A stretch of DNA of 64,000 nucleotides from Candidatus Dadabacteria bacterium (lineage in GTDB: Bacteria > Desulfobacterota_D > UBA1144 > Nemesobacterales > CSP1-2): NCBI GenBank assembly GCA_963805855.1, contig CAWDVW010000005.1, positions 608,001 to 672,000 of the forward strand, read 5' to 3'. The notes beneath the pieces were generated by a model. It did no database searches and was not told where the DNA came from. It was given only the letters and a program-made list of their open reading frames with translations. This document shows positions 2,229 to 60,861 of the stretch, piece after piece. The translations under genes and the position numbers were made by a program. Position 1 is the stretch's first letter, and the number at the start of each line of letters is the position of its first letter.

Positions 2229-2256
2229 CGGATTAGAAAAGTTGGGAACATCTACT

Positions 2257-7901: not shown

Positions 7902-8005
7902 GTCTAGGTTATAAATATGTGCCGACAGCATCAATCATCTTGTAATTTCTGACCGTCCCCCGTGCGCGAGAATATACGCTATAACACACGTGATCCAGGC
8001 AGAGA

Positions 8006-27100: not shown

Positions 27101-30100
27101 CTACCCTTATCATCTGCCCAAGAAAGATCATGGTTCTTGGATCGACTGGATCCGGGCGGTACTGCGTATAACATGATTACGGCTTTCCGTATCAATGGTT
27201 CAATCAATTTAAATGCACTTGAGTGGTCGCTCAATGAAATTATCAGGAGGCACGAGGCGCTCCGGACAACCTTCCAGGAAGTAGACGGTAAACCTTTTCA
27301 GGTTATTTCACCATTCAAACGAATACAAATACCGACCGTTGACCTAACTAAACTCAACGAGATGGAGCGGGAAAATGAGGCCCTGAGGATAGTCAAGAAA
27401 GAAATAATGAAACCCTTTGACCTGAAAAAAGGGCCGCTTTACAGCGTATCACTATTAAAACTCTCCGATAAAGAATTTATAGTTGTCTTCATAATACATC
27501 ATATAATTTTTGACGGTTGGTCGGCGAACATTCTGATTAACGAGATGACCGTCTTTTACCAAGCCTTCCCCATGGAAGAACGCGCCCCCATTCCTAAACT
27601 CAAGTTTCAGTATGGGGACTTTGCACAATGGCAGCGGAGTTGGCTGGAGAGCGAGTTAATGGCTAAACAGCTTTCCGACTGGACTGAAAAACTGGGAGGT
27701 CAGCTGCCTAAGTTAGAGCTGCCCATAGACCACCCGCGGCCACCAGTATTCACTTTTAAGGGCGCTACTACAAAAAAATTCGTTCTGCCAAAAGCTCTTT
27801 CGACTAGATTAAAGGACTTGAGCCTTAAGGAAGGCGTCACAATTTTTGTGACCTTGTTAGCCGCTTTAAAGATATTGCTTTACAGATACACAAACGAAAA
27901 AGATATAATTGTAGCTTCACCGACTTCAGGGCGGCATCATCCTGAAATTGAAAACTTGATAGGCTTTTTTGTTAACCCTCTCATCTTTCGAAGCCGTATC
28001 TCGCCTGAGCATACTTTTCGTCAGACCCTTGCACGAGTACGGGAAGTTTGCTTGGATGCCTTTTCGCTTCAGGACGTTCCTTTCGAAAAGATAATTGATG
28101 CTATTAGGCTTGAGCGTAATCCAGGAGTAACGCCAATTTCTCAAGTAGCATTTTCGTTTGAAAGCCCACCGAAACGCTATCAGCTGCCGGAAGCGATTAG
28201 TATAGAGCCTCTGGACATTGACACTGGAACAGCTAAGACAGACTTTGCTCTTTTCATTTCTGAACTAGACGGTGGTTTAGAGGGAAGAGTTGAATATTAT
28301 TCCGAAATCTTCGACGAGTCCACTATTAACCGAATGACAAGTCATTTCCAAATCCTCTTAGAAAGTATCATAAATAACCCGGACCGGCGTGTCTCGGATT
28401 TGAACATCTTAACGAAGGAAGATAGGGAGAAAGTGCTCGTAAAGTGGAATGAGGAATCTAGAGAATATACCAATGAGCGGTGTATTCACGAGCTATTCGA
28501 GCAACAGGTGGATAAAGCTCCTGAAAACATTGCAGTTGTGTTCGAAGATCAAGAGCTTACATATAGAGAGCTAGATGAAAGAGCCAACAAATTAGCGTAT
28601 TACTTGCAATCATTAGGTGTAGGGCCGGAAACATTAGTAGGCCTCAGTATGGATAGATCTCTGGAAATGATTGTCGGATTGCTTGGAATTCTAAAGGCAG
28701 GCGGAACATATGTACCAATCGATGCTTCATATCCAGCAGAGCGTCTAGCCTTAATTTTTGATGATAGCAAATTACAAGTACTTCTAACGCAGAATCATCT
28801 AGAATCCAATTTATTCCATCGTAATACAAGGTCAACGCCGAAAGGCATAAAACATATTCTCTGTATCGATGCTGATCAGGAAATCTCCTCTAAGATACCA
28901 AACAAACATCAAACCGCCAATGTGTCGCATGACAATTTGGCCGTCATATTCTACACCTCGGGTTCCACGGGAAAACCGAAGGGCGTCGAATTGGCACATC
29001 TCGGAATATGTAACTTCACTGAGGAGCTGTCCAGGGATTTACAGATTGCCCCCAACGACCGTATACTCCAGTTTGCCTCACCGAGTTTCGTCGTCTCCAT
29101 AATTGAAATCTTCACAGCCTTGAGTCGCGGATCAACGCTGGTTATGGGGAGCCAAAAGTCATTAATGCCGGGCACCCCATTGACGCGGTCTTTAATCGAT
29201 AATCGCATTTCCATAGCCATTTTACCCCCTTCGATAATTTCATCCCTAAACACAATTGATCTGCCAGAATTGCGAATATTAATAGCCACAGGGGAATCAG
29301 TCACTTCAGAGATTGCGAGGCGCTGGTCTTCGACTCGGAAATGCTTCAATCTTTATGGAACCACAGAAACGGGTGTTGCTACACTCGGGAAATTAAATGG
29401 TCAAGCGGGCGATGTGCCCCTGATTGGAAGGCCTATCTCACACATGCAAGTTTACTTACTCGATAATAGATTGAATCCAGTTCCAGTGGGAGTCAGGGGA
29501 GAGATATATATCGCAGGAACAGGTTTAGCCAGAGGTTATGTTAAGAGACCAGACCCGACTTCCGAAAAGTTTATTCCAAACCCATTCGATCGCAAACCGG
29601 GGAGTCTGATGTACAGATCGGGTGATTTTGCCAGATACAGGCCTGACGGCAGTCTAGAATTTCTAGGTAGGCTTGATAATCAAGTCAAGATTCGAGGATT
29701 CCGCATAGAGCTGAGCGAGCTAGATGCATTAATGCTGCAACATCCCCATGTCAGACACGCATTGGCGCTCGTGCAAGACGACTACCCTAAAGGTAAACGT
29801 ATTGTTGTTTATTTTTCCCCAAGTCAGGATAAGAAAATCGATGTGAGCGAAATCAGAGAATTTCTTAAGCAAAAGCTGCCATATTATATGATGCCTTCAA
29901 ATATTGTCCTTCTGAATAAATGGCCACAGACTGAGAGCGGCAAGATTGACAGGACAAAACTGCCGTTGCCAGATAAATCACGACCAGAACTTAAGGAGGC
30001 ATATATAGCACCAAGCTCAGCAGCTGAGGAAATGCTTGAACTGATTTTCGCTGCGGTTCTTGGCATCGAAAATGTAGGCATCAATGACAACTTCTTCGAT

Positions 30101-30394: not shown

Positions 30395-33300
30395 ATGACA
30401 ACCCAAAAAATACACCAATCCTCACACCCGCGGAAAAGCGCCGGCTTCTAGCTGAGAAACTTCGCGAGAAAGGCAAAAAACCAACCAATTTCCCTCTTTC
30501 GTATGCTCAGCAAAGGATATGGTATTTTGAGCAACTGCTTCCGGGTACACCTGTTTATAATATTCCTTTTTCCTGGCGTATCTTAGGTCGATTGAAAATA
30601 AGCGCACTGGAGCAAAGTCTAAATGAAATAGTAAAAAGGCAAGCGGTTTTAAAAACAAACTTTTCGACAAGCGATGGCCAGCCCGTTCAAATCCTTTCAG
30701 ACCGCCCGCAAATAGAGATCTCGGTTCAGGACCTTTCAAAATCAGCTCCCGACGACCAAGAACAATTCATAGAACAAATAAAAAACGAAGAATCAAGGAC
30801 TACATTTGATCTTGCCGGTGGACCGCTAATCCGCGTAAAGTTACTGAAGCTAGGAGAGGAAGACCACATCCTTTTAACGACAATTCATCACATTGTCTTC
30901 GACGGGTGGTCTACACAGGTATTCAACCGGGAGCTTTCGACGATATATCAAGCTTTATCAGATGGAAGCCGGTACTCCCTCCCTGAACTTCCAATCCAGT
31001 ACCCCGACTTTGCAGTCTGGCAACGTAAATGTTCCGGGGAACTATTGCTTGAAGCGCAACTTTCGTACTGGAAGCGCAAGCTTAATGATTGCCAACGTCT
31101 TAAATTGGTAACCGATCGGCCCAGACCATCGTCGAATACCTTCGGTGGTGCGTGTAAGTCCTTTGAGCTTCACACAGCGCTATACGAATCCCTCAAAGAG
31201 CTAAGCGGGTCGAATGGGGTTACCTTGTTTATGACAATGTTAGCAGCACTTAAGACGTTGCTTCATCATTACACAGCGCAAGAAGACATAGTCATTGGAA
31301 CCGATATCGCAAACCGCAATCAGACAGAAATCGAACCGCTTTTAGGCTTATTCACCAACACGTTGGTTATGCGCACCGACCTCTCTGGAAACCCGACCTT
31401 TAAGGAACTGCTATCTCGCGTAAGAAAGGAGGCTTTGGAAGCCTACAAGCATCAAGACCTTCCATTCGAACAGCTTGTCGAAGCTTTACATCCAGCACGA
31501 GACCTAAGCCACCATCCACTGTTTGACGTAATGTTCATCATGCAGGACGATCCTTTAAAGTACCTTAGCCTGCCTGGCCTGAGTATAAGTCCTCTGGAAG
31601 TACACACCGGCACTTCAAAACTTGATCTGATCTTTTTTATCTGGGAGGGGAAAAACGGTCTTCGAGGTGAAATAGAATATTACACCGAAATCTTTGAAGA
31701 GTCTACGATTTTAAGAATGATTGAACATTTTAAAACCCTCCTATTTCAGATTGCAACGAATCCGGACCGGCGAATCTCTGAGATACCGATATTGGGAGAA
31801 AAGGAAACACACCAACTTTTAGTGGCATTGAACGAAACGGAAAAGGAATACTCATACGATAAATGCTTACAACAATTGTTTGAATCTCAAGCGGAAAAGA
31901 ATCCCAACGCCCCCGCTGTAATCTTTCCTTCTAACCCTCGTCGCGCTCAGGGCTCAGGACAGGCTGAAGGCAGACAAGTTACCTACAGGGAACTAAACGA
32001 GAGGGCAAATCAATTGGCCCATCATCTGATTGGATTGGGGGTAGATCAAGAAAGCATTGTTGGTCTTTGCCTGGAGCGCTCAGTGGAGATGATAGTTGGG
32101 CTTCTTGGGATACTCAAGGCAGGTGGTGCTTACCTGCCCCTTGATCCCTCGTATCCCAAGGAGCGATTGGCATTCATGCTTAGGGATGCAAATGTTTCTG
32201 TCCTTATTACACAGAGGGGATTCGAAGCGAGGCTGCCTGAGAATGGAGCGAAGGTAGTGTTGATCGACACCCAGTGGAATGAGATTTCAAAGGAGAGCAA
32301 AAGAAACCCAAGGCATGCGGTATCACCGGACAACCTTGCCTATATTATCTACACCTCTGGCTCTACAGGGGTACCCAAGGGTGTAGCTGTCCAGCACCGC
32401 TCCGTTGTCAATCATAATTTGGATGTTTCGAGAAGGTATGGCCTTAGGGAAGATGATCGGGTGCTCCAATTCTACTCCATAAGCTTTGACGGTGCAGTTG
32501 AGGAGATATTCCCGACGTTAATATCGGGTGCTACATTAGTGCTCAGGGGTGAAGACATACTGGCTCCCGGCAGTGAATTGTTAGGGTTTATTGACAGCAA
32601 TGAGATAAGCGTTGTCAACCTACCCACCGCATACTGGCACGAGTGGGTAAAAGAACTGCCAAGCACGAATGGGAGGTTTCCAAATTCTCTTCGATTGGTG
32701 ATAGTGGGAGGAGACAAGGTTTCACCCGACAGATATAAGACCTGGGGCGAGGTGGTGGATGGTAGGGTGCGATTGATAGACACATACGGTCCAACAGAGA
32801 CAACAGTGATTTCAACAATGGCTGAGGTTAACGGAGCATCAAGGCTCTCTATTGGACGGCCTATAGCAAACACAAAGACCTACATACTCGATAAACGAAT
32901 GCATCCGGTCCCTATCGGAGTGGCAGGGGAACTTCACATTGGAGGATTAGGAGTTGCACGTGGGTATCTTAACCGACCTGATCTGACAGCGGAAAGATTT
33001 TTACCAAACCCCTTCGGTGATGATCCTGGGGAGAGGCTTTATAGAACAGGCGACCTTGCACGGTACCTGGAAGATGGAAATATCGAGTTTCTGGGCAGGA
33101 TAGACCATCAGGTTAAGATAAGGGGATTCAGGGTTGAGCTTGGCGAGATAGAATCAATGATATTGGAACACCCTGGTGTGGAGGATACTGTGGTCGTCGC
33201 TAGGGAAGACGATCTAGGAGATCCTTCGAATTCGGCCGCACAGGATAAGCGCCTGGTCGCTTACCTGGTTCCTAAGCAAGATCAACCAGGCGCCGATGAA

Positions 33301-36300
33301 GTGATAGAAAAAGCGGAATTGGCTACAAAGCAGGTTTTTGAGTGGCAGGCGGTATTTAACGAGTTGTACCGAGAGATCGATCAAACTCAGAAAAGCGGTT
33401 TCTATATTAAGGGTTGGGAGAGTTCCTACACAGGTTTACCTATCTCCGATGATGAGGTTAAAGACTGGATGGATCAAACAGTAGAGAGAATCCTAGCGTT
33501 AAAACCTTCTCGAGTGCTGGAGATAGGATGCGGTGGTAGTGGGTTAATGCTTTTAAGATTAGCTCCGGAGTGCATTGAGTATTGCGCTACAGACGTTTCG
33601 GAAAATGCAATTCGTGTTATCAAGGAGCAATTGTCAGCAATGAATCTGAGCCTTCCACAGTTGAGCTTCGTTCAGAGGGCAGCAGATAGGTTTGAGGGCG
33701 TGACTTCAAACTCTTTCACCGCTGTGTTAGTCGTGTCAGTCATACAGTATTTCCCCAGTATAGAATATTTATACAAAGTTTTGGAACACGCTGTAAGCGC
33801 CGTCGAACCAGGTGGCTTTATCTTTGTGGGCGATGTGCGAAACTACAGGTTGCTCAGAGCCTTCCATACATCAGTTCAATTGTACAAGGCAAAGTCATCT
33901 CTTCCCGCGCAGCAACTCAGACAGGAAGTAGAGAAAGAAATTGCATTCGAGAAACAATTGACTGTAGATCCCGCCTTTTTCAAGACATTGAAGAATCATC
34001 TGCCGAAGATTGGTCATGTAGAGATACTGTTAGAGAGAGGACGTCACCACAATGAGCTTACGAAGTTTCGTTATGACGTAATGATCCATGTTGGACCACA
34101 CGTGAGAAAAAGCGCTCCCGCTAAATTGCTTAAATGGAGGGAAAACAATCTAACAATCGAATCTGTAAAGAAGGTACTGGAAGATTCTGAGTCGGAAGAC
34201 ATAGTTATTACTGAAGTGCCTAACGCACGCGTCTTGCATGACATAAACGCTTGTGAATTACTGAGGGATCCTGATGGACCACAGACAGCGGAATCCATCA
34301 GAGAAAAGCTCGGGGCAGTGGAAGAAAAGGGTGTGGATCCGGAAGACTTCTGGTCCTTAAGTAACGGGGTATCACATGTCATAGATGTCTATACTGCGAC
34401 CGCAGGTGACAATAGCTGCTACGACGTAGTATTAAGGAAAAATAGAAAAGACATATCAGAACGACGAATGGTTGAAATTCCCCTACTTGAAGAAGAAGGA
34501 ATCAATCTTAGAAAATCAAATGAATATGCCAATAATCCATTGGCGAGCGCATTCAGTTTTAATCTTCTCCAAGACCTTAGATACTTTCTAGAACAGAAGC
34601 TTCCGGAATATTCCGTTCCTTCATCATTTGTAACATTAGATAAAATACCCCTGACGCCGAGCGCTAAGGTAGATAGAATGGCGCTACCCCGGCCTTACGG
34701 AACCAGACCGGATTTGGTGGGTTCTTATGTCGCACCGCGCACTTCCGTAGAAGAAAAACTGGCAGACATATGGTCTCAGGTGCTTGGTGTTGAGAAGGTA
34801 GGGATTTACGACAACTTCTTTGAATTGGGGGGAGAATCTATAATTGCCATACAGATCATTTCCAAAGCCAATCAAGGTGGGCTAAATTTAACCGTAAGAC
34901 ACATCTTTCAACATCAGACGATAGCCGAACTCGCTGCTGTTGCAGGCAACTTCTCTATTATAGAAGCAGATCAGGGGCCAATAAAAGGCCCGGTACCACT
35001 AACGCCAATTCAGCAATCGTTTTTTGAACAGAATCCTCCTGATCCTCACCACTTTAATCAGTCGGTTTTTCTTGAGATACGAGAAGAGCTAGACCCAGTG
35101 TTACTGGAGAAGGCGATAAACTATCTTGTGGTACATCATGATGCTCTTCGTATGCGTTTTATGAAAGGTGATCCGGGGTGGCATCAGGAGAACATGGATA
35201 GCGAAGATTCTGCGTTCTTTTCAATTATCGACCTATCTGACGTTTCTGAGGCGGGACTGACGCCCGCTATTGAAGCGACTGCGTCAGAGCTTCAGAGTGG
35301 CCTTAACATATCCAAAGGACCCGTGCTGAAGGTTGCCTTATTCAATCTTGGCCTTGGCAAGCCCGCCCGTTTGCTGATTATCATTCATCACCTAGTAGTA
35401 GATGGAGTCTCGTGGCGAATCCTGCTGGAAGACTTACTTATGGCCTACACGCAGTTGAGCCGAGGTAAAGAAATAACACTTCCACCAAAGACAACCTCGT
35501 TTAAGCGTTGGGCAGAAAGACTAAAGGATTTTGCCGAGTCTGAACCTGTTATGGACGAACTGAACTTTTGGACATCGCCGTCAGGGAGCGAGGTCAACAG
35601 ATTACCTATCGATCGTCCCGGCGGAACTAATACGATTATCTCCTCACAAAGCGTTTCAGCATTTCTCGATGCGGAGGAGACACAAAAGCTATTGAAGGAA
35701 GTTCCCCAGGCTTACAACACACATATCAATGACTTACTACTCACTGCCCTGGTACAGGCTCTATCACCGTGGACAGGCAAAAACTCCTTACTGATTGACC
35801 TTGAGGGTCACGGTAGGGAGGAGTTATTTGATGACGTCGACATATCACGAACGGTTGGCTGGTTTACGACAATATTTCCCTTGTTGTTAAGTTTGGAAGA
35901 CTCAAATGACCTAAGCGATATCATAAAGTCTGTAAAAGAGCAGGTTAGAAGAATTCCCAATCATGGGATTGGATATGGTTTGCTTAGACATATGAGAGGA
36001 GACATTGAAGTCACTGACAAACTGAGGGATTTGCCCCAGGCAGAGATTTGTTTTAACTACCTAGGGCAGTTCGATCAATTATTGCCAGGGTCTGCTCCGT
36101 TTGGTCGGGCCAGGGAATCGAGTGGACCAAATGCAAGTCTTGTTGGAAATAGGAAATATATTCTCGAGATCAATTGCGGAGTATTGGAAGGAAAACTCCA
36201 CATGGTATTGACCTATAGTGAGAACCTTCATCGACGAGCTACGATTGAAGAACTGGCTGAAAGGTACATGGAATTACTTCGTCAACTTCTAGAATACTGT

Positions 36301-36399
36301 CTATCCGATTACGTCGGAGGCTATACGCCCTCAGACTTCCCCGGAGTCGACTTGAATCAAGAAGAGCTTGATAAGATCATTACAGAAATCGGTGAGTGA
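30391..36399 (+). CDS. NRPS 2: C-A(MT)-T-E
   Basis: N-terminal docking LTPAEKRRLL, HHIVFDG, A domain, MT (VLEIGCGGSG, VIQYFP), GGESI carrier, E motifs HHLVVDGVSW/DLEGHGRE/RTVGWFT/FNYLGQFD, COM donor YTPSDFP; ATGA overlap with NRPS 1. Confidence 0.95.
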   Translation: MNDNPKNTPILTPAEKRRLLAEKLREKGKKPTNFPLSYAQQRIWYFEQLLPGTPVYNIPFSWRILGRLKISALEQSLNEIVKRQAVLKTNFSTSDGQPVQILSDRPQIEISVQDLSKSAPDDQEQFIEQIKNEESRTTFDLAGGPLIRVKLLKLGEEDHILLTTIHHIVFDGWSTQVFNRELSTIYQALSDGSRYSLPELPIQYPDFAVWQRKCSGELLLEAQLSYWKRKLNDCQRLKLVTDRPRPSSNTFGGACKSFELHTALYESLKELSGSNGVTLFMTMLAALKTLLHHYTAQEDIVIGTDIANRNQTEIEPLLGLFTNTLVMRTDLSGNPTFKELLSRVRKEALEAYKHQDLPFEQLVEALHPARDLSHHPLFDVMFIMQDDPLKYLSLPGLSISPLEVHTGTSKLDLIFFIWEGKNGLRGEIEYYTEIFEESTILRMIEHFKTLLFQIATNPDRRISEIPILGEKETHQLLVALNETEKEYSYDKCLQQLFESQAEKNPNAPAVIFPSNPRRAQGSGQAEGRQVTYRELNERANQLAHHLIGLGVDQESIVGLCLERSVEMIVGLLGILKAGGAYLPLDPSYPKERLAFMLRDANVSVLITQRGFEARLPENGAKVVLIDTQWNEISKESKRNPRHAVSPDNLAYIIYTSGSTGVPKGVAVQHRSVVNHNLDVSRRYGLREDDRVLQFYSISFDGAVEEIFPTLISGATLVLRGEDILAPGSELLGFIDSNEISVVNLPTAYWHEWVKELPSTNGRFPNSLRLVIVGGDKVSPDRYKTWGEVVDGRVRLIDTYGPTETTVISTMAEVNGASRLSIGRPIANTKTYILDKRMHPVPIGVAGELHIGGLGVARGYLNRPDLTAERFLPNPFGDDPGERLYRTGDLARYLEDGNIEFLGRIDHQVKIRGFRVELGEIESMILEHPGVEDTVVVAREDDLGDPSNSAAQDKRLVAYLVPKQDQPGADEVIEKAELATKQVFEWQAVFNELYREIDQTQKSGFYIKGWESSYTGLPISDDEVKDWMDQTVERILALKPSRVLEIGCGGSGLMLLRLAPECIEYCATDVSENAIRVIKEQLSAMNLSLPQLSFVQRAADRFEGVTSNSFTAVLVVSVIQYFPSIEYLYKVLEHAVSAVEPGGFIFVGDVRNYRLLRAFHTSVQLYKAKSSLPAQQLRQEVEKEIAFEKQLTVDPAFFKTLKNHLPKIGHVEILLERGRHHNELTKFRYDVMIHVGPHVRKSAPAKLLKWRENNLTIESVKKVLEDSESEDIVITEVPNARVLHDINACELLRDPDGPQTAESIREKLGAVEEKGVDPEDFWSLSNGVSHVIDVYTATAGDNSCYDVVLRKNRKDISERRMVEIPLLEEEGINLRKSNEYANNPLASAFSFNLLQDLRYFLEQKLPEYSVPSSFVTLDKIPLTPSAKVDRMALPRPYGTRPDLVGSYVAPRTSVEEKLADIWSQVLGVEKVGIYDNFFELGGESIIAIQIISKANQGGLNLTVRHIFQHQTIAELAAVAGNFSIIEADQGPIKGPVPLTPIQQSFFEQNPPDPHHFNQSVFLEIREELDPVLLEKAINYLVVHHDALRMRFMKGDPGWHQENMDSEDSAFFSIIDLSDVSEAGLTPAIEATASELQSGLNISKGPVLKVALFNLGLGKPARLLIIIHHLVVDGVSWRILLEDLLMAYTQLSRGKEITLPPKTTSFKRWAERLKDFAESEPVMDELNFWTSPSGSEVNRLPIDRPGGTNTIISSQSVSAFLDAEETQKLLKEVPQAYNTHINDLLLTALVQALSPWTGKNSLLIDLEGHGREELFDDVDISRTVGWFTTIFPLLLSLEDSNDLSDIIKSVKEQVRRIPNHGIGYGLLRHMRGDIEVTDKLRDLPQAEICFNYLGQFDQLLPGSAPFGRARESSGPNASLVGNRKYILEINCGVLEGKLHMVLTYSENLHRRATIEELAERYMELLRQLLEYCLSDYVGGYTPSDFPGVDLNQEELDKIITEIGE
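31981..33180 (+). repeat. 1.2 kb A-domain segment apparently identical to 24092..25291
   Basis: Direct comparison of the two sequences. Confidence 0.9.
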
Positions 36400-39300: not shown

Positions 39301-42300
39301 GAAAGATTGATAGAAAGGCACTGCCTGAGCCTGATAAAACAAGGCCAGAACTGGGTAGAGAATTTGTAGCACCCCGAACCCCTACAGAGGAGATACTGGC
39401 AGACATATGGGCCCAGGTGTTAGGCATAGAGAAAGTAGGAGTATACGACAACTTCTTTGAACTGGGAGGACACTCACTGCTTGCCACACAGGTGGTGTCC
39501 CGCACAAGAGATGCCTTTAAGGTAGAGCTGCCACTCAGAAACCTTATAGAAGAACCCACTGTTTCTCGGCTGGCAGAGACAATAGACGAGGCGGGAAAAA
39601 GGGGTGAGGGGCTGAAGGCACTTCCAATCATACCCATACCAAGGGATGGAGAACTTCCCGTATCCTTTGCCCAGGAGAGGCTATGGTTCCTCGATCAGTT
39701 TGAGCCAGGCAGCAGTGCTTACAACATGCCTGGGGCAGTGAGGGTAAGGGGCAGACTAGATGTGGAGCTACTGGAGCGCTCGATAAACGAGATAATAAGG
39801 CGTCATGGGTCACTCAGAACTACATTTAAATCAGTGGATGGAAAACCCAAACAGGTAATAGCAAGTGAGTTGAGTTTTGCACTACCAGTGGTAGACCTCA
39901 GAGAATTGCCAGAGGAGAAAAGGGAGTCTCGGGCTAGGACTTTAGCGATAGAAGAGGCAAAGACCCCATTTGACCTTGAGAGTGGTCCTCTACTCAGGGC
40001 TACCGTGCTAAGGCTTGGGGAGGAAGACCATGTCGGTCTATTCACGATGCACCACATCATATCAGATGGCTGGTCTATGGGAATACTCATCAGAGAGGTT
40101 GCGGCAATATATGATGCATATTCCAATGGAAAACCCTCACCCCTGCCAGAACTCCCGATACAGTATGCAGACTTTTCACAGTGGCAGAGACAGTGGCTAC
40201 AGGGTGAAGTGCTTGAGTCACAGCTACAGTACTGGAAACAGAAGCTTGATGGCCTGCCACCGGTTCTTGAGTTACCAACCGATAGGCCGAGGCCAGCTGT
40301 ACAGACATACAATGGGGCACATGAATCATTTGAGCTTTCCTCCGTGTTATCAGAAGCCCTTGGTGAGCTGAGTAGACGGGAAGGAGCTACACTGTTCATG
40401 ACGCTGCTTGGTGCCTTTCAGACACTGCTCTACAGGTATACAGGGCAGGAGGATATAGCAGTAGGTACGCCAATTGCAAACAGGAACCGGTCGGAGATCG
40501 AAGGGCTTATAGGTTTCTTTGTCAACACACTTGTGCTGCGTACTGATTTTTCAGGAAATCCGAGCTTCTTAGAACTATTGAGGAGAGTAAAAGAAACCTC
40601 TCTCGAAGCATACGCATATCAGGACCTACCTTTTGAGAGACTGGTGGAGGAGCTTAATCCCGAGAGGGACATGAGTCACTCGCCACTATTTCAGGTGATG
40701 TTTGTACTGCAGAATGTGCCTACCCAGGCCTTAGAGATAGAAGGCTTGACCTTGAGCCCACTGGAACCGGATAGCAGCAGGGCACTGTTTGACCTGACAT
40801 TAACGGTCAGTGATACAGATCAAGGACTAATGGGATCAATTGAATACAATACTGATCTCTTTGACGATACTACCATAACACTAATGATCGAGCATTTCCG
40901 AATTCTAGTGGAAAACATAGTAAAAAGCCCAGACCAGAGAATAACAGACCTGCCAATATTAACCGAGAAGGAAAGACATAAACTCCTTGTAGAATGGAAT
41001 GACACAAAGAGTGAATATCCCACAGATAAGTGTGTTCATCAATTATTTGAAGATCAGGTCAAGAAGACTCCTGATGCCACTGCAGTGGTCTTTGAAGATC
41101 AGAAACTTAGTTATAAGGAGCTAAACGAAAGAGCCAACCAATTAGGGCACTACCTTAGAGATCATGGGGTAGAACCTGAGTGCCGTGTGTGTGTATGTTT
41201 GGAAAGATCAATTGAGATGATAGTTGGGCTCCTGGGAATACTTAAAGCCGGAGGGGTTTATGTACCTGTTGATCCTTCTTATCCTAAACAACGGCTGGAA
41301 TTCATGCTGGAGGATTCAAAGGTAAAGGCAATCCTAACTCAAGAAAGTTTAGTAGAGATGCTTCCGACTAATGGTGCACAGGTAGTCTGCATTGACACAC
41401 AATGGGAAGGTATCGCTAAGAATACTAAGAAAAACCCAGTAAGTGGGATCACACCCAGCAACCTTGCCTATGTTATATACACCTCCGGCTCAACAGGGCT
41501 ACCCAAGGGCGTCGCAGTCCAGCACCGCTCGGTTGTCAATCATAATTTAGATGTTTCCAAAAGGTATGACCTTAAACAAGATGACCGAGTCCTGCAGTTT
41601 TACTCCATAAGTTTTGACGGCGCCGTTGAGGAGATATTTCCAACATTATTATCAGGGGCTACATTGGCCCTGAGGGGTGAAGAGATTCTTGCCCCGGGGA
41701 CTGAATTCTTAGACTTTGTTGCCAGTAACAAGATAAACGTTGTTAACCTACCCACTGCATACTGGCATGAGTGGGTAAAGGAACTGCCTAGCACAAATGG
41801 CAGGTTTCCGGACTCCCTCCGACTGGTGGTAGTGGGAGGAGACCGGGTCTCGCCAGACAGATATGAGACATGGAGTGAGGTAGTAGATGGTAGAGTGCGC
41901 TGGATTGACACATATGGTCCAACAGAGACAACTGTGATATCGACAATGGCTGAACCTGATGGGATATCAAGGCTCTCCATTGGACAACCTATCGCGAACA
42001 CAACGACTTACATCCTTGATAAACACATGTATCCTGCCCCTCCAGGAGTCCCGGGAGAATTACACATCGGAGGTTTGGGCTTGGCCAGAGGCTATATGAA
42101 CCTTCCAGAGCTCACAGCGGAGAAATTCATACCCAATCCCTTCAGCGACGATTCTGGGGAGAGGCTTTACAAAACAGGTGATCTTGCCCGCTATCTACCA
42201 GATGGGAACATAGAATTTCTAGGCAGGATAGACCATCAAGTTAAGATTCGCGGATTCAGGATAGAAACCGGGGAAGTTGAATCAGTACTGAGAGAACATC

Positions 42301-45300
42301 CATATGTAAAAGATGCAGTCGTTGTAGCAAGGGGGGATGGGAGTGGAGATCCTTCGACTTCGCTCAGGACAGACAAGCACCTGGTGGCATACGTGGTAAC
42401 AGCAGGGGAAAATCAAACCACTGATAGTGAGCTAAGAAACTACTTAAAGCAAAAGCTACCCGAGTACATGGTGCCATCATCATTTGTAACACTGGATGAA
42501 TTACCACTCACTCCAAGTGGAAAGGTAGATAGAAAGGCACTGCCTGAGCCTGATAAAACAAGGCCAGAACTGGGTAGAGAATTTGTAGCACCGCGAACTC
42601 CCACAGAGGAGATACTCTCAGACATATGGGCCCAGGTGTTAGGCATAGAGAAAGTAGGAGTATACGACAACTTCTTTGAACTGGGAGGACACTCACTGCT
42701 TGCCACACAGGTGGTGTCCCGCACAAGAGATGCCTTTAAGGTAGAGCTGCCACTCAGAAACCTTATAGAAGAACCCACTGTTTCTCGGCTGGCAGAGACA
42801 ATAGACGAGGCGGGAAAAAGGGGTGAGGGGCTGAAGGCACTTCCAATCATACCCATACCAAGGGATGGAGAACTTCCCGTATCCTTTGCCCAGGAGAGGC
42901 TATGGTTCCTCGATCAGTTTGAGCCAGGCAGCAGTGCTTACAACATGCCTGGGGCAGTGAGGGTAAGGGGCAGACTAGATGTGGAGCTACTGGAGCGCTC
43001 GATAAACGAGATAATAAGGCGTCATGGGTCACTCAGAACTACATTTAAATCAGTGGATGGAAAACCCAAACAGGTAATAGCAAGTGAGTTGAGTTTTGCA
43101 CTACCAGTGGTAGACCTCAGAGAATTGCCAGAGGAGAAAAGGGAGTCTCGGGCTAGGACTTTAGCGATAGAAGAGGCAAAGACCCCATTTGACCTTGAGA
43201 GTGGTCCTCTACTCAGGGCTACCGTGCTAAGGCTTGGGGAGGAAGACCATGTCGGTCTATTCACGATGCACCACATCATATCAGATGGCTGGTCTATGGG
43301 AATACTCATCAGAGAGGTTGCGGCAATATATGATGCATATTCCAATGGAAAACCCTCACCCCTGCCAGAACTCCCGATACAGTATGCAGACTTTTCACAG
43401 TGGCAGAGACAGTGGCTACAGGGTGAAGTGCTTGAGTCACAGCTACAGTACTGGAAACAGAAGCTTGATGGCCTGCCACCGGTTCTTGAGTTACCAACCG
43501 ATAGGCCGAGGCCAGCTGTACAGACATACAATGGGGCACATGAATCATTTGAGCTTTCCTCCGTGTTATCAGAAGCCCTTGGTGAGCTGAGTAGACGGGA
43601 AGGAGCTACACTGTTCATGACGCTGCTTGGTGCCTTTCAGACACTGCTCTACAGGTATACAGGGCAGGAGGATATAGCAGTAGGTACGCCAATTGCAAAC
43701 AGGAACCGGTCGGAGATCGAAGGGCTTATAGGTTTCTTTGTCAACACACTTGTGCTGCGTACTGATTTTTCAGGAAATCCGAGCTTCTTAGAACTATTGA
43801 GGAGAGTAAAAGAAACCTCTCTCGAAGCATACGCATATCAGGACCTACCTTTTGAGAGACTGGTGGAGGAGCTTAATCCCGAGAGGGACATGAGTCACTC
43901 GCCACTATTTCAGGTGATGTTTGTACTGCAGAATGTGCCTACCCAGGCCTTAGAGATAGAAGGCTTGACCTTGAGCCCACTGGAACCGGATAGCAGCAGG
44001 GCACTGTTTGACCTGACATTAACGGTCAGTGATACAGATCAAGGACTAATGGGATCAATTGAATACAATACTGATCTCTTTGACGATACTACCATAACAC
44101 TAATGATCGAGCATTTCCGAATTCTAGTGGAAAACATAGTAAAAAGCCCAGACCAGAGAATAACAGACCTGCCAATATTAACCGAGAAGGAAAGACATAA
44201 ACTCCTTGTAGAATGGAATGACACAAAGAGTGAATATCCCACAGATAAGTGTGTTCATCAATTATTTGAAGATCAGGTCAAGAAGACTCCTGATGCCACT
44301 GCAGTGGTCTTTGAAGATCAGAAACTTAGTTATAAGGAGCTAAACGAAAGAGCCAACCAATTAGGGCACTACCTTAGAGATCATGGGGTAGAACCTGAGT
44401 GCCGTGTGTGTGTATGTTTGGAAAGATCAATTGAGATGATAGTTGGGCTCCTGGGAATACTTAAAGCCGGAGGGGTTTATGTACCTGTTGATCCTTCTTA
44501 TCCTAAACAACGGCTGGAATTCATGCTGGAGGATTCAAAGGTAAAGGCAATCCTAACTCAAGAAAGTTTAGTAGAGATGCTTCCGACTAATGGTGCACAG
44601 GTAGTCTGCATTGACACACAATGGGAAGGTATCGCTAAGAATACTAAGAAAAACCCAGTAAGTGGGATCACACCCAGCAACCTTGCCTATGTTATATACA
44701 CCTCCGGCTCCACTGGGAAACCAAAGGGGGTACCTATAATCCATAGTTCTTTAGTGAATTTCCTTTGTTCCATGGGTGAGCAACCAGGCCTGACAAGCAA
44801 AGACCTTATGCTCGCAATTACTACTTTGTCCTTCGATATTGCAGCGCTGGAGATTTTTCTTCCTATCATTAAAGGTGCCTGCGTTGAACTGGTAACCCGC
44901 GAGGTCGCATCCTATGGTACTCAGTTGCTAAAAAAGATTACGGATTCCGGCGCAACGGTAATTCAAGCCACCCCAGCTACATGGCGAATGCTTTTAGAAG
45001 TGGGTTGGAGTAATAAGGATAGACCAAAAATACTCTGCGGGGGTGAAGCCCTTTCGAGTGATTTAGCAGATGAATTAGTAAAAAGATCAGATTCACTTTG
45101 GAATGTCTATGGTCCTACGGAAACTACAATTTGGTCTACTATTCACCGAGTCAGTAAAAGAAGTGCTTTCGTTTCAATCGGACGACCAATTGGAAATACT
45201 CAAATATATATCTTGGACAAGCACCTAACCCCTGTGCCCATAGGAGTACCTGGGGAGCTACATATAGGTGGTGCGGGTCTAGCAAGAGGATATTTAAACA

Positions 45301-54300: not shown

Positions 54301-57300
54301 CCGAAGTCCAGGTATCCCGAGATAACCTTGCCTATGTCATTTATACCTCAGGCTCCACAGGCAATCCCAAGGGTGTTCAAATCCATCATAGATCACTGAC
54401 AAATTTCCTAATTTCATCTTGCAACCAGTTGAGATTAACATCGGGTGAAATAATACCTGCAATTAATACCTATTCATTTGATATCTCTATTCTAGAAATT
54501 TTTGTACCACTTGTTACCGGCGCCAGAGTAGGTTTGATTAGTCACGAAATTGCAACCGACGGATCACAATTGTCAAAAAAGATTAATCAATTAAGCGCAA
54601 CGATGATTCACGCTACACCTGCAACCTGGAAACTGCTTTTTGCAGCAGACTGGAAGAGTCCAAAAACATTCAAATTACTATCTGGTGGTGAGGAATTAAT
54701 TAGAGATTTGGCGAATCAACTGATTGAGAGGTCGAATTCGCTATGGAACGTGTACGGGCCCACTGAGGCTACTGTCTATTCTACATTTTACCAAGTTGCT
54801 AACCAAAACGGTTCTGTACCGATAGGCCGACCGATTGCCAACACCAAAATCTTTATTCTGGACAAGAGCTATAATCCAGTTTCTATAGGTACAGCGGGAG
54901 AGCTTCATATCGGAGGAGACGGACTGTCTCGTGGCTATCTGAACCGACCCGATCTGACAGCCGAGAAGTTTATACCGAACCCATTTAGTGAAGAGCCCGG
55001 CGAGAGGCTTTACAAGACAGGAGACCTTGCGCGGTACCTGCCAGACAGCAACATAGAATTTCTGGGAAGAATAGACAATCAGGTAAAGATAAGGGGATTC
55101 AGGATAGAAACAGGGGAAATAGAATCAATACTAAGAAAACATCCATACGTAAATGATGCAGTTGTTGTAGCAAGAGAGGACGCACCTGCCGAAAAACGCC
55201 TTGTCGCATATTTATTGGTGGATAGCGAGCATAAGCCTGTTATAGAAGAACTAAGGGCTTTTTTAATGGAAAAGCTTCCTGAGTATATGGTGCCATCATC
55301 CTTTGTAACACTTGATGAATTACCACTAACCCCAAGTGGAAAGGTGGATAGAAAGGCACTGCCTGAACCGGATAAGAAACGACCGGAAATCTTACAAGAA
55401 AAATACGTGGCACCGAGAAATCCAATAGAACAGGAATTTACAGATATTTGGAGTGAAGTCCTTGGAGTTGACCAGGTTGGAATTTATGACAATTTCTTTG
55501 ATTTGGGAGGTAATTCCCTCCAGGCAACCAGACTGATATACAAAATATCTTCAGACCTGCAATACGAAGTTTCGGTTAAAACACTATTCTTAAATCCTAC
55601 AATCTCTGACCTTGTAAATGCTATTGCGAAACCTTCAGCTGAAGTCGAAGATAAAAGACCCTCAGTTTCGAACGAAACCACTAGCAAAGAACTTGTAAAC
55701 AAAGATCAAGCAAGCCGTTCTAGATTGAATGATTATATAGAAATTGAACGACGTCCACTACTGGACCTTATTAAAGATGGGGAAATTAAGCAACTAGATG
55801 CAGCAGCTATCGGTTACTTATCAAGCTCAATACTGGATCACCCAAGTATTGACAGGAAAATGGTGGACGATTTTTTTAACAATAAACCGATAATATCGAA
55901 TATTATGGATTTAGATCTAGGTCGTATTGCAATAATATTAATACCATTTTTCGAATCAGAGCTATATGCCGATCAGGATTCCTTAGTTGACATGATAATA
56001 GACTCGCTCGAATTAGCGGGCTTAACGGGGGCGAAAACCGTTTCTCTAACGGGTCTCATACCCTCTGCCACTGGTTACGGCCGTGCTATCTACGATGCAG
56101 TCGATGGTCGCACTGATTTACCTCAGATCACAACAGGACATGCAACGACCACATCTTCAGTTGTACTTCAAATAACCAGAGCACTTAGGGAAAGTGGGCG
56201 GGAGCTGAGCAATGAAAAGGTAGGTTTTTTAGGTCTGGGATCGATAGGAATGGCAACCCTTAGTTTGATGCTGAAAAGCCTCCCTCATCCATCGGAAATT
56301 ACTTTGTGTGATCTATACAGCAAGCATGATACCTTAGAGAAGCTAAAAAACAGTATTATTAGAGAATTTGGATACTGTGGGAGTATACAAATAGTAGGTT
56401 CCGGTGTTAGGGTCCCATCAGAATTTTATGAAAATTCTCTAATCATCGGAGCTACAAACGTACCAGAAGTCATTGATATTAAACTTGCAAAGCCCGGTAC
56501 GATAATTGTCGACGATTCAGCACCGCACTGCTTTTCCGTAGAGGACGCCATTCGCAGATTTGAAAAGCACGTTGATATAATTTTCACAGAGGGTGGCGTT
56601 CTACAATCACCCAAGCCGGTTTGCCATTTACGGTATCTCCCAGAGATCGCAGAAAGACTTATTGAGAAAGGCCAATTAGAAGCATTCGCAGAACAAGACT
56701 CATCGCAAATAACCGGCTGCGTGTTATCCGGCCTACTCTCATCTCGTTTCGACAATCTAAAACCTACATTGGGTTTAGTTGAAGCTGCAACTTCCTGCAA
56801 ACATTATGAAATTCTTAAAGATTTAGGGTTCGATGCGGCGGAACTACATTGTGGGAATTATGTCCTTGAAAAAGAAGCAGTTAAGGCATTCAGGCAAAAC
56901 TTTAGTATACAGAATACTAAAATCAAAAAGGATATAAGGATAGGTATAGAAAAATCTCCACTTGTGACCATCCAACCACTAGGTTCGAAGCCCCCCTTCT
57001 ATTGTGTTCATGCCATTGGTGGGAGCGTTTTCTCATATTATGACTTGTCAAAATTTCTCGGCAAAGATCAACCCTTTTACGGGCTAGAATCGGTGGGTAT
57101 GGAAGGTGAAGAGCCTCCTCTCTCGAACATCGAAAGAATGGCCGCACTGTATATTCAAGCTATTCAATCGGTTCAGTCGGTTGGTCCTTATAGCATAGGA
57201 GGATGGTCTATGGGAGGATTAATTGCTTATGAAATGGCTCAGCAATTGTTAGCTCAAAAGGACACAGTGTCACAATTAATTCTGTTTGACTCTCACTCTC

Positions 57301-57929
57301 TCAGAAGAAACAGAAAGGCAACAAAAAGATATTCGAACAGACTTCTACGAAATTTTTTAGAAAAGCTTTGCTATTACTTTAAAAACCCGAACACTTCATT
57401 AGATCACGTCATAGACGATTTACCTGACGAGGGTTGGTCAGAGGAAATTATATACGAAAATGAATTAAGTAAGGGTAATCGCGTAATCCGTCCCTATAGA
57501 GAATTAGCCAAGATTCTCGGTATCAATTCCAGTGAGCTTAACTTATTATTGAATCATATTTTAGAAGGCGATTCAGGTAAACCCTTAATCCGGATCTGGA
57601 ACAATCTTGAACCTGAAAATGAAACAAACAGAATGATTGAACTCCGGCATGCTATCCGAAGGTTGGACATATATCTTAATAACTACAGGGCAATGCACAA
57701 ATATAAGCCTAAACCTTATCCAGGGCAATTAACCCTCATTCGTGCTAAGGGTCACTTTAGCATTTTCGAAATAGATAAGTCCTTGGGGTGGGGAACCTTA
57801 GCCAAAGGCGGCGTTGAAGTTCACATTGTTCCCGGGGATCATTATACTATATTTAAAAGGCCGAACGTCAATCTCTTGGCTGAAAAACTAAATGCATGCC
57901 TTAACGATGCAAATGGCACCGGAATTTAA
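36396..57929 (+). CDS. NRPS 3: six C-A-T modules + NAD(P)-binding reductase-like domain + thioesterase
   Basis: First C is DCL-type ([19 protein letters not shown]); five HHIISDG C domains; six A domains; five GGHSL and one GGNSL carriers; a ~390 aa domain with GLGSIG; TE with GWSMG and GDHY; GTGA overlap with NRPS 2. Confidence 0.95.
39400..41491 (+). repeat. 2.1 kb T-C-A(N-terminal) segment apparently identical to 42619..44710
   Basis: Same sequence at offset 3219, ending inside YTSGS; identical shadow ORFs at 39628/42847, 39803/43022 and 40820/44039. Confidence 0.9.
42350..42373. repeat. 24 bp intragenic REP-like insert TCCTTCGACTTCGCTCAGGACAG(A/G), also at 45548..45571 and 51995..52018
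   Basis: Absent from the homologous site at ~39155 (GGAGA|GAAGGAG); adds PSTSLRT(D/G) in frame. Confidence 0.75.
42619..44710 (+). repeat. 2.1 kb segment apparently identical to 39400..41491
   Basis: Direct comparison of the two sequences. Confidence 0.9.
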
Positions 57930-58355: not shown

Positions 58356-59939
58356 ATGAAGCGAATATTTGTCAAGTTCATACCGTTAATTCTTATCGCA
58401 TTCTTAAATTTAGGAGGCTGCGACAACGGAGGTCAAACTACTGCCCTCTGGATCGTCGCCGGACAAAATTTAAATAACACACGTCATCAATCAAAGGAAA
58501 CGATAATAGGTCCTTCAAATGTAGTGAATCTATCAATCAAATGGATTTTCACAACGGGAGGAGACGTTTCTGCCACTCCTGCTGTAGATGAGAATGCAGT
58601 CTACGCGCCAGATTGGGGCGGGAACCTTTTCAAAATAGATAGAAAAAGCGGTGCGGAAATATGGTCGCGCCGTATATCTGATTATACGGGAATACCGAAT
58701 GACCTATCTCGTACGACACCAGCAGTTTATGGCACCAAGCTCATATTGGGAAATCAGGGCGGCGGCGCACATGTGATAGCCGTCAACAAGGATACTGGGG
58801 ATCTTATTTGGATTACAAAAGTTGATGACCACGAGGCTTCTATAATCACTCAATCGGCGGTTGTACATGATGACCGCGTCTATGTGGGCATCTCTTCATT
58901 TGAGTTTGTTACGGCTATCGATCCGGAATATCCATGCTGCACATTTCGTGGAAGTGTTCTAGCCTTAGATTCAAATAACGGAGAGATCCTATGGAAGACT
59001 TACATGACACCATCGACTGATAAATTCCCCGGCTATAGCGGAGTTGGCGTTTGGGGCAGCACATTAGTCGTGGACTCGAAACGCAACCTTCTTTACGTTC
59101 CGACTGGTAACAACTACACAGTCCCGGAGGAAGTGCTCGAATGCGTTGAAGAAGCAAATAATCAAGGCATCGATCCAAGACTATGCAATGATCCCAGTAA
59201 CCTTTTTGATGCTGTAGTAGCCCTTGACCTAGATAGTGGAGAGATAGTATGGGGCCAGCCGATGATTCCATTCGACGCCTGGAACTTTTCATGCCTAATA
59301 GGGGGTATAAACTGCCAATCGTCAGCGGGAGTTGATTACGACTTTGGGCAAGGCCCCATTTTGTTCTCAATTAAAGGTGCTGACGGATTATTTATCGATC
59401 TGTTGGGGGCTGGTCAGAAAAGCGGTCAGTATTGGGCACTTAATCCTGATAACGGGGAAGTTATGTGGGTGACTCAGGTCGGGCCCGGTGGTATTACCGG
59501 GGGCCACCAGTGGGGTTCCGCTACAGATGGTGAACGTATCTATACGGCAATATCAAACTCAGGACGAGTAGAATGGGAACTAATGGAGAACGGACAGGGA
59601 ACCGGTGAGTTCACTCGAGGAGGGTTTTGGAGCGCACTCGATCCCACTACAGGAAAGATTCTTTGGCAGACGCCTGACCCAAACGCTGCCCTTGACCAGG
59701 GTGCGGTAACTATCGCTAATGGGGTAGTTTTTGCAGGTTCCCTCGCCCCTGATCCCGATGATAGTACTTTCTTCGCTTTGGACGCCGCATCAGGTGATAT
59801 CCTTTGGGAGTTTCCAAGCGGCGCATCTGTAAACTCTGGAGCTGCCGTAGTTGATGGCACAGTTTATTGGGGCTCCGGCTATTCACGCCTGAACTATGCA
59901 ACTGGTAACAACGAAGTGTACGCGTTTGAGATAAGATAA
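58356..59939 (+). CDS. PQQ-binding beta-propeller lipoprotein (polyvinyl-alcohol dehydrogenase-like)
   Basis: Lipobox LGGC; repeated A(L/V)DxxTGxxxW blades; YPCCTFRGSV, DYDFGQGP and GQKSG motifs. Confidence 0.85.
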   Translation: MKRIFVKFIPLILIAFLNLGGCDNGGQTTALWIVAGQNLNNTRHQSKETIIGPSNVVNLSIKWIFTTGGDVSATPAVDENAVYAPDWGGNLFKIDRKSGAEIWSRRISDYTGIPNDLSRTTPAVYGTKLILGNQGGGAHVIAVNKDTGDLIWITKVDDHEASIITQSAVVHDDRVYVGISSFEFVTAIDPEYPCCTFRGSVLALDSNNGEILWKTYMTPSTDKFPGYSGVGVWGSTLVVDSKRNLLYVPTGNNYTVPEEVLECVEEANNQGIDPRLCNDPSNLFDAVVALDLDSGEIVWGQPMIPFDAWNFSCLIGGINCQSSAGVDYDFGQGPILFSIKGADGLFIDLLGAGQKSGQYWALNPDNGEVMWVTQVGPGGITGGHQWGSATDGERIYTAISNSGRVEWELMENGQGTGEFTRGGFWSALDPTTGKILWQTPDPNAALDQGAVTIANGVVFAGSLAPDPDDSTFFALDAASGDILWEFPSGASVNSGAAVVDGTVYWGSGYSRLNYATGNNEVYAFEIR

Positions 59940-60111: not shown

Positions 60112-60861
60112 ATGCAAAATTCAGAACAAAAATGGCGTAACCCGCCGAGCAAATTAAATTTAGGACGCCATGAAATCCATGTCTGGCGTGCTGACTTAAA
60201 TGTTACCAAGCAACTATTAAAGAAACTTAAAGACACCTTACAAAAGGTAGAAACGGATAGGGCCAATCGCTTTCATTTTGAAAAGGACCGACACCATTTC
60301 ATTGCTGCCAGAGGTGCTCTTAGAGTGATCCTCGGAAATTATCTTAATATACAGCCACGCAATCTGAACTTCACTTACAATACACATGGAAAACCAAGAA
60401 TTGCCAATGAACTGGATCAAAATCATGTCAACTTCAATTTATCCCATTCGCATGGGATTGCACTATACGCCGTAACCTTGGGTAGGGAGGTAGGAATTGA
60501 TATTGAAAGGGTCAGGACAAATTTGTCTTTCGAGAAGATCGCAAAGCGATTCTTCTCACCCTTGGAGTTCCAGACGCTCATGGCATTGCCTCTCTCAGAG
60601 CGTGTAGCAGGCTTTTTTAATTGTTGGACTCGTAAGGAGGCCTATATAAAGGCTATCGGAGAAGGTCTTTCCATCCCCCTAGATCAGTTTGATGTGACAC
60701 TGAATCCAAACGATGAAGCTAAAATTATTAGTACTAAAGGAGACTCGATTTTGGCAGCCCGCTGGTCATTGTATGCTTTGATACCAGCGCCCGGATATGT
60801 CGGAGCTTTAGCCGTGGAGGGAAAACACCTCACGATCAAATATTGGATGTGGACAGGTTAA
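60112..60861 (+). CDS. Sfp/HetI-type 4'-phosphopantetheinyl transferase
   Basis: GKP, FNLSHS, VGIDIE and WTRKEAYIKAIGEGL motifs. Confidence 0.95.
   Translation: MQNSEQKWRNPPSKLNLGRHEIHVWRADLNVTKQLLKKLKDTLQKVETDRANRFHFEKDRHHFIAARGALRVILGNYLNIQPRNLNFTYNTHGKPRIANELDQNHVNFNLSHSHGIALYAVTLGREVGIDIERVRTNLSFEKIAKRFFSPLEFQTLMALPLSERVAGFFNCWTRKEAYIKAIGEGLSIPLDQFDVTLNPNDEAKIISTKGDSILAARWSLYALIPAPGYVGALAVEGKHLTIKYWMWTG

Follow-up and report, generated by a model that had tools for sequence, protein, structure and literature searches.

A putative terminal amidation domain (TAD) of ~400 residues has been described at the end of CarI, VatR and HcaD, and it is the only one-domain route to amidation that has been proposed for nonribosomal peptide synthetase (NRPS) and polyketide synthase assembly lines (bioRxiv 10.1101/2024.10.28.620694; our statements on this and the other cited works refer to excerpts of them). 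A TAD is expected to form the C-terminal end of its protein, with no other off-loading domain. Here, we describe a stretch of 64,000 nucleotides from a Candidatus Dadabacteria bacterium (contig CAWDVW010000005.1, positions 608,001 to 672,000; henceforth, the window) in which a TAD-family domain lies near the end of a large NRPS, between the last peptidyl carrier domain (PCP, or T) and a thioesterase (TE) of 318 aa. The novelty is this rare and selected T-TAD-TE arrangement, together with cousins of the T-TE-TAD and T-TAD-R types (R, reductase), and not the domain itself.

In the CarI TAD, a macrodomain-like N-lobe is joined to a Rossmann C-lobe, annotated as amino-acid-dehydrogenase-like, and NAD is bound 4 Å from the invariant Cys2238, which is positioned by a TTG motif. 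Asp2102 selects NAD(H) and excludes NADP(H) and CoA, no binding of NADP(H) was found, and the second Asp of a DDSG-cisPro loop stacks on the nicotinamide and is argued to favour NAD+. Crosslinks and a disulfide formed with dephospho-CoA indicate that the phosphopantetheine arm of the PCP reaches Cys2238, and NADH competes with the arm for access. The fold resembles that of the cyanobacterial acyl-ACP (acyl carrier protein) reductase (AAR), with Cys2238 spatially equivalent to AAR Cys294. Carmabin, vatiamide and hectoramide are C-terminal amides in which the residue of the last module is retained and a nitrogen is added (bioRxiv 10.1101/2024.10.28.620694).

PigE's N-terminal domain and the C-terminal domain of TamH are also AAR homologues with a conserved catalytic Cys (PMC8341465, PMC9594044), and the thioester reductase (TR) domain of TamH is NADH-dependent and uses the equivalent Cys (PMC9594044). 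These TR domains are fused to pyridoxal phosphate-dependent transaminases, and not to NRPSs, and they convert fatty or keto-acyl thioesters into aldehydes that are then transaminated. Additionally, MtaG/MelG-type modules (C-A-MOx-A-T-TE; C, condensation; A, adenylation; MOx, monooxygenase) resemble what is proposed for the locus described here in that they owe their C-terminal amide to an additional redox domain and have the TE last on the same carrier (PMC11411415, PMC13548996). By contrast, their A domain holds the redox domain as an insertion, a monooxygenase of unrelated fold whose mechanism consumes a sacrificial glycine, and we found no homology between it and the TAD.

Identity of the domain preceding the thioesterase

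In the translated NRPS tail (P0001, window 55131-57929), the end of the A core is followed by the PCP, by ~390 residues without a Pfam match and by the TE. When the isolated stretch (P0002, window 55653-56975) was compared by phmmer with all PDB sequences, two constructs of one protein were found (E 1.6e-122 and 1.3e-120), deposited under the title 'TAD from Carmabin Biosynthetic Pathway' and released on 2025-02-26. The best of them, 9e4s_A, is matched essentially over its full length (query 6-418 against chain 4-414), and a profile search against the CarI TAD gave an E of 2.1e-171. The AlphaFold2 model of the domain, built on 28 sequences with a mean pLDDT of 89.6, has the two-lobe fold, with its crossover segment, of the CarI/VatR/HcaD TAD (PDB 9E4S, 9E4U, 9E4X, 9E50, 9E56), as its ten best Foldseek matches are CarI TAD chains (TM 0.82-0.96, rmsd 1.4-2.4, 48-50% identity), with a TM of 0.87/0.91, an rmsd of 1.4 and 49% identity over 393 columns for 9e4s_A. 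Homologues at E<=1e-3 numbered 903 among 1.84 billion representative proteins, and together with the PDB match this places the domain well outside what chance would give.

The catalytic residues point in the same direction. P0002 maps onto the CarI numbering at a constant offset of +1882, and every catalytic residue named in the excerpts of the preprint is kept. The putative acyl-accepting Cys6775 (C356 of P0002) is present in 148/148 aligned relatives and lies where helix 355-365 of the model begins, as described for the Cys of CarI. In the TTGH motif, the G and the following H are found in all 148 relatives and the second T in 146, and D220, the equivalent of the NAD-selecting Asp, is also found in 146/148. 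The loop that reads DDSGP in CarI is DDSAP in the window domain; this is the commoner form in the family, since 79 of the 148 relatives have Ala, and 44 have Gly, at the fourth position of DDSxP. The GxGxxG loop and the position directly after the last PCP are shared as well, as the PCP ends at residue 165 of P0001 and the TAD fold begins near residue 200.

The domain is, at the least, almost certainly a regular member of the TAD family, that is, of an NRPS-embedded branch of the AAR/PigE-TR/TamH-TR superfamily. It was already named, solved and interpreted as AAR-like in the 2024 preprint (bioRxiv 10.1101/2024.10.28.620694), and no new enzyme class has to be postulated. A sequence-only reading of the window had considered the domain undescribed, which the match to PDB 9E4S contradicts. 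That reading was accurate with respect to the layout: it had located a domain at 55730-56900 between the last T and the TE, where the fold was indeed found (55728-56906), and the motifs that it quoted, each of which occurs once in the NRPS, the flanking PCP and TE, and the TGC codon of the Cys (56718-56720) are all in their places. It had also stated that the domain is not of the C, A, E, MT, Ox or SDR-type R (short-chain dehydrogenase/reductase) kinds, and no such Pfam match was observed.

By fold, the nearest relative outside the TADs is AAR, as the sequence-only reading had suspected. The best non-TAD Foldseek matches were the AAR chains 6jzq, 6jzy and 6jzu (E 8.6e-16 to 2.2e-14, TM 0.57-0.74, 16-17% identity; TM 0.58/0.72 at E 8.6e-16), followed only by generic Rossmann dehydrogenases with a query-normalised TM <=0.35. 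An inter-lobe Cys next to the nicotinamide and a ping-pong acyl-Cys logic are probable further points of likeness, and the Cys that had been singled out as the acyl acceptor aligns with CarI Cys2238, which the preprint equates with AAR Cys294. Unlike the NRPS-embedded TAD, AAR (PDB 6JZQ, 6JZU, 6JZY) is free-standing, uses NADPH and makes aldehydes, and its N-lobe has no counterpart of the first strand and helix of the TAD or of its dimer interface. By sequence, the comparison of the family profile with the AAR chains gave an E of only 1.8. The next sequence match after the TADs was PigE (chain 4ppm, E 1e-7 with the family profile, N-terminal region 68-278), and the NCBIfam model of PigE was also matched (7.7e-8, 31.1 bits against a cut-off of 850, partial, model positions 66-273). 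This homology, weak but significant, extends over ~210-230 residues that include the TTG-like and Rossmann parts and bears out the analogy with PigE and TamH that had been drawn in the sequence-only reading (PMC8341465, PMC9594044). Judged by these sequence scores, the domain is to be regarded as a homologue, and not a member, of the PigE-type thioester reductase family.

Other profiles gave little. Between the PCP and the TE, Pfam returned nothing significant (at E<=10, only 2-Hacid_dh_C at 0.028 and a chance match), and NCBIfam on the isolated domain returned only the weak and partial PigE match and SbnB at 0.003, with no AAR model. An identity as an SDR-type R or ketoreductase (KR) domain, which the sequence-only reading had named as one that would refute it, was rejected, as there is no PF07993, PF01370 or KR match in the domain. 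The SDR-type R of NRPSs (PF07993) is similar to the TAD in being nucleotide-dependent and in following the last carrier domain, but it has a different fold and no catalytic Cys, and the two must be distinct entities because R follows the TAD in two proteins (P0232 and P0238).

The TE is intact, as had been claimed: it has its Pfam match and its Ser, Asp and His motifs (Table 1), and its best PDB matches are in-cis type-I NRPS TEs (4zxh, 2.4e-23; 7crn, 3.3e-22), while the type-II editing enzyme RifR is matched at only 4e-4. As no PP-binding match, and hence no second carrier domain, was found between the TAD and the TE, a single PCP serves both. The PCP-TAD-TE tail is kept in two genomes of the same genus, with which the ratio of nonsynonymous to synonymous substitution (dN/dS, pairwise Nei-Gojobori, window and two congeners) was calculated. 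The values were 0.16-0.21 for the TAD, 0.22-0.37 for the TE, 0.14-0.19 for the A-C/PCP region and 0.39-0.95 for two linkers, with 0.69-0.95 for the TAD-TE linker between the congeners. TAD and TE are thus both under purifying selection in the three congeners, and both look functional.

Distribution of TADs with a second off-loading domain

The rarity of this tail was estimated from a survey of homologues (the 150 best of 903 proteins), a survey of genomes (the 80 best of 451 loci) and a second search in which a TAD+TE query was compared with proteins of 1632-4660 aa (the best 120 of 317 matches). The TAD ends <=30 residues from the C-terminus in 143 of the 150 best homologues and is followed by 31-52 residues in another four, and long tails were observed in the remaining three, with a TE in P0048 and P0079 and an SDR reductase in P0093. 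Similarly, a stop codon occurs <=43 codons after the TAD in 79 of the 80 best genome loci, the sole exception (L004) being a congener of the window. The TAD+TE query added one TAD-TE protein (P0153, at full coverage) and two with PF07993 (P0232 and P0238). The reverse order, T-TE-TAD in one frame, was found in four Nitrospirota/Nitrospirales loci (L068, L075 and L079, complete; L078, partial). Additionally, R precedes the TAD in P0013.

When these results were pooled (n=259: 252 database proteins, the window, two congeners and four loci, with L078 left out), 243 TADs were terminal, six were of the TAD-TE, four of the TE-TAD, three of the TAD-R and one of the R-TAD type, and two had other tails. 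The sequence-only reading had suggested looking for other T-X-TE architectures; they do exist, but of the six TAD-TE sequences, three belong to the genus of the window. The combination of a TAD and an SDR-type reductase adds another type of end with two off-loading domains, and the terminal position is an architectural habit of the TAD family, not a feature of the fold. All fusions with a TE or R retain the Cys and TTGH of the TAD, as well as GxSxG wherever the TE is complete. In a FastTree phylogeny computed from 255 TAD domains, TAD-TE forms occur in four distinct lineages and have terminal TADs as their nearest neighbours, so that TAD-TE is likely to have arisen independently several times (the tree is midpoint-rooted and its supports are moderate).

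Within the phylum of the window, the TAD was found with this query in 3/120 genomes and 1/32 genera, namely in the window and its two congeners, and in none (0/38) of the other genomes of the same family or order. Since its nearest relatives (49-56% identity) are largely cyanobacterial, the NRPS cluster was probably acquired horizontally. The host of CarI is itself a marine cyanobacterium, whereas a congener of the window host is labelled Thermodesulfobacteriota.

Some observations on other TAD loci may also be of use. In a gammaproteobacterial metagenome-assembled genome, a separate TE-like open reading frame (ORF; L018:7643-7876) lies ~500 bp downstream of a terminal TAD, of which it may be a trans partner. 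A long TAD-ending ORF (L081, contig CALQSQ010000032.1) is on a contig labelled as an Akkermansia muciniphila metagenome-assembled genome, an unexpected host that could be a binning error. Many cyanobacterial NRPSs that end in a TAD are ~1645 aa long (e.g., P0159, P0161 and P0168) and carry precomputed matches to PF07238, which we take to be PilZ, and to PF18563, presumably the TubC N-terminal docking domain.

Two proposed off-loading catalysts on one carrier domain

The best overall explanation, to which we assign a probability of about 0.6, is that Cys6775 and NAD(H) would act together in a covalent catalysis that yields a peptide amide, and that the TE would provide an additional route for off-loading. 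In this model, the phosphopantetheine arm of the last PCP would enter the NAD(H) tunnel of the TAD and the finished nonapeptidyl chain would, with good probability, be handed to Cys6775, which would free the holo-PCP; this transfer is proposed because the CarI TAD binds NAD(H), is accessible to the arm and shows competition between NADH and the arm. The Cys-thioester would then be resolved with the help of the bound NAD(H). A C-terminal primary amide is the most likely outcome, as the three known products are amides that keep the last residue, although we would give it slightly less than even chances. The TE would either hydrolyse or cyclise the peptide, which would give a second way of release, or rescue those chains that the TAD has not taken, and the assembly line would thus have two competing or cooperating off-loading catalysts on one PCP.

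Several observations weigh against this explanation. A TAD that releases the peptide by itself would starve the TE, which is at odds with the conservation of the TE and with the existence of T-TE-TAD and T-TAD-R proteins. In vitro, no release by the TADs of CarI and VatR could be obtained, whether NAD(H), metals, ammonia or one of the 20 amino acids was supplied (bioRxiv 10.1101/2024.10.28.620694), and in the literature after the preprint we found no demonstration of a TAD that releases or amidates anything. Additionally, the functionally characterised relatives, AAR, PigE-TR and TamH-TR, are all reductases (PMC8341465, PMC9594044), and the equivalence of Cys6775 and AAR Cys294 is a suggestion of the preprint combined with our alignment.

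That the relatives are reductases argues for a reductive release, in which the chain would pass to Cys6775 and be converted into a peptide aldehyde at the expense of NAD(P)H, perhaps with subsequent reduction, cyclisation or amination and with the TE as a backup. Both the nearest non-TAD fold (AAR, E 8.6e-16) and the nearest non-TAD sequence relative (the N-terminal reductase domain of PigE) are consistent with such a role, TamH-TR uses NADH and the equivalent Cys (PMC9594044), and the preprint itself keeps open a route in which the chain is reduced, nitrogen is added and the product is re-oxidised (bioRxiv 10.1101/2024.10.28.620694). However, the known TAD pathways lead to amides and not to aldehydes or alcohols, NADH did not elicit release by the CarI and VatR TADs, the NAD(H)-selecting Asp is kept, and so is, as D288, the nicotinamide-stacking Asp that is argued to favour NAD+. 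Moreover, P0232 and P0238, with T-TAD-R ends, would each hold two thioester reductases. Consequently, the release as an aldehyde or alcohol put forward in the sequence-only reading is not favoured, and we consider it unlikely. In another view, release would be left to the TE alone, and the TAD would survive as an inactive relic or serve purely as a structural spacer. This would account for the complete TE in its canonical last position, but it is very hard to reconcile with a confidently modelled domain (pLDDT 89.6) that keeps all the catalytic motifs and whose dN/dS (0.16-0.21) matches the low values of the PCP region and falls below those of the TE, and a relic domain was rejected.

A different option is a division of labour, in which off-loading would fall to the TE and the TAD would tailor or cleave the chain on-line in an NAD-dependent manner. 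In a version similar to MtaG, the TAD would oxidise the N-C-alpha bond of a sacrificial, glycine-like last residue, the amide would leave and the TE would hydrolyse the 2-oxoacyl remnant. Such a division would explain why a type-I TE is under selection beside the TAD and why a TE or R is found on either side of TADs in several lineages; it also agrees with the amino-acid-dehydrogenase-like, NAD-selective C-lobe, and the TE of the MOx systems has been proposed to clear the remnant after amide formation (PMC11411415, PMC13548996). By contrast, carmabin, vatiamide and hectoramide retain their last residue and gain a nitrogen, so the sacrifice of a residue is not the way of the characterised TADs. 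The nine pocket residues of the last A domain of the window are DILHLGVVY, which we take to resemble a glycine code. DIL-type codes are not specific to TE-linked TADs, as they occur in 22/176 other proteins, nearly all with a terminal TAD. Among the TE- or R-linked forms, they were found only in the genus of the window, in P0048 (where the pocket read is unreliable because the motif lies 1428 aa upstream) and in L068, and not in L075, L079, P0232 or P0238. The idea that TE- or R-linked TADs always follow a glycine-type last A domain was rejected, since there is no clean link (P0153, P0079 and P0093 were left out of this comparison). On balance, a division of labour seems rather improbable.

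The covalent route to an amide is therefore preferred, but the conserved TE and the T-TE-TAD and T-TAD-R forms are explained at least as well by a TAD that is not self-sufficient. We tentatively suggest, as a minority view, that the TAD would be an AAR-like Cys/NAD catalyst that works through the same carrier as a classical off-loading domain in T-TAD-TE, T-TE-TAD and T-TAD-R proteins. One possible form of this would be the oxidative cleavage of a glycine-like last residue with the TE clearing the 2-oxoacyl remnant, as a monooxygenase-free counterpart of MtaG. If the TAD needs a partner, the fusions with a TE or R would be natural systems in which its reaction could be seen.

These considerations matter because C-terminal amidation alters the permeability and stability of peptides. 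Three species conserve a TAD that shares its carrier with an intact TE placed after it, a natural experiment that bears on what the TAD actually does, and the excerpts of the main text of the preprint make no mention of a TAD adjoining a TE (bioRxiv 10.1101/2024.10.28.620694). There is also a caution for genome mining. Neither Pfam nor NCBIfam has a model for these 390 residues before some TEs, which form a real catalytic domain; as this domain goes unannotated, predictions of cyclic-peptide or free-acid products for such clusters may be wrong.

The NRPS genes and their surroundings

The coordinates of the features discussed above are collected in Table 1. The coordinates of the NRPS domains were obtained by phmmer with the window's own domains as queries.

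Table 1. Position of the domains, motifs and residues of the NRPS tail in the window, with related features and fusion proteins (coordinates preceded by a handle belong to that locus or protein)
Feature	Position	Strand	Remarks
Third NRPS gene	36396-57929	+	7177 aa; six C-A-T modules, then TAD, then TE; ORF list, Pfam counts
Last PCP	55434-55625	+	NRPS residues 6347-6410; Pfam PP-binding E 1.6e-13, P0001 residues 102-165
GGNS, phosphopantetheine site of last PCP	55506-55517	+	Motif search
TAD-family domain	55728-56906	+	NRPS residues 6445-6837, P0002 residues 26-418; macrodomain-like N-lobe and Rossmann C-lobe
13-residue motif quoted in the sequence-only reading	56028-56066	+	Once in NRPS
TTGHATT	56130-56150	+	Once in NRPS
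T-T-G motif	56130-56138	+	P0002 T160-T161-G162 = CarI 2042-2044; alignment
10-residue motif ending in Gly-rich loop	56220-56249	+	Once in NRPS
GLGSIG, GxGxxG dinucleotide-binding loop	56232-56249	+	P0002 194-199 = CarI 2076-2081; alignment
Asp (D220 of P0002)	56310-56312	+	CarI Asp2102; alignment offset
IIGATN	56442-56459	+	Once in NRPS
IIVDDSAP	56502-56525	+	Once in NRPS
DDSAP loop	56511-56525	+	P0002 D287-D288-S289-A290-P291 = CarI 2169-2173 (DDSG-cisP); alignment
TEGG	56586-56597	+	Once in NRPS
10-residue motif around Cys	56709-56738	+	Once in NRPS
Cys6775, putative acyl-accepting Cys	56718-56720	+	Codon TGC; P0002 C356 = CarI Cys2238; alignment
TAD-TE linker	56907-56972	+	22 residues; no PP-binding match
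Type-I TE domain	56973-57926	+	Pfam PF00975 E 1.4e-30, P0001 residues 622-735
TE Ser6938	57207-57209	+	GGWSMGG
TE Asp6965	57288-57290	+	LILFDS
TE His7149	57840-57842	+	PGDHYT
Sfp-type phosphopantetheinyl transferase of cluster	60112-60861	+	Pfam ACPS, E 8.1e-20
T-TE-TAD proteins	L068:5071-7146, L075:5155-7212, L079:5074-7158, metagenomic P0075		TE GxSxG and TAD Cys intact
TAD-R (PF07993) proteins	P0232 (TAD 2272-2661, R 2712-3083), P0238, P0093

The host genome is a 9-contig assembly, and the window contains three co-directional NRPS genes (21182-30394, 30391-36399 and 36396-57929) with nine A domains, two of which contain embedded methyltransferases, one E-like domain and an N-terminal C domain. 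Two ABC transporters are found upstream of these genes and the phosphopantetheinyl transferase downstream. The first NRPS starts with a C domain (residues 18-465), and another C-like region, which is divergent and shorter (496-817), lies between it and the first A domain, an arrangement that could represent a starter C domain for lipo-initiation and an unusual extra domain. In the 7177-aa NRPS, whose modules measure ~3.2 kb, 39616-39915 is 100% identical to 42835-43134 and 40812-41111 to 44031-44330; these stretches correspond to modules 2 and 3, the C domains of which score identically. Such identity suggests that the modules have undergone gene conversion or were duplicated recently, or else that the assembly is at risk of having collapsed here.

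A gene for a PQQ-like beta-propeller of 527 aa (58356-59939) separates the NRPS from the phosphopantetheinyl transferase. In one congener (G002), the NRPS is directly followed by the transferase (74% identity) and CoaBC (91%), with no match to the propeller at that place; as it is not conserved there, the propeller was rejected as a partner of the NRPS. No nitrogen-supplying or NAD-synthetase gene adjoining the NRPS was found within the window. An ORF of the arginine-deiminase/amidinotransferase family (PF02274, E 3.4e-23), whose members release ammonia or transfer amidino groups, lies at 10053-11060, 10 kb upstream of the NRPS genes. Farther upstream (1191-9790), there are a KAS III-like ORF, a PEMT/ICMT-like methyltransferase, two SDR epimerase/dehydratase ORFs, a sulfotransferase and, at 8006-9790 on the minus strand, an ORF of 594 aa that belongs to no Pfam family.

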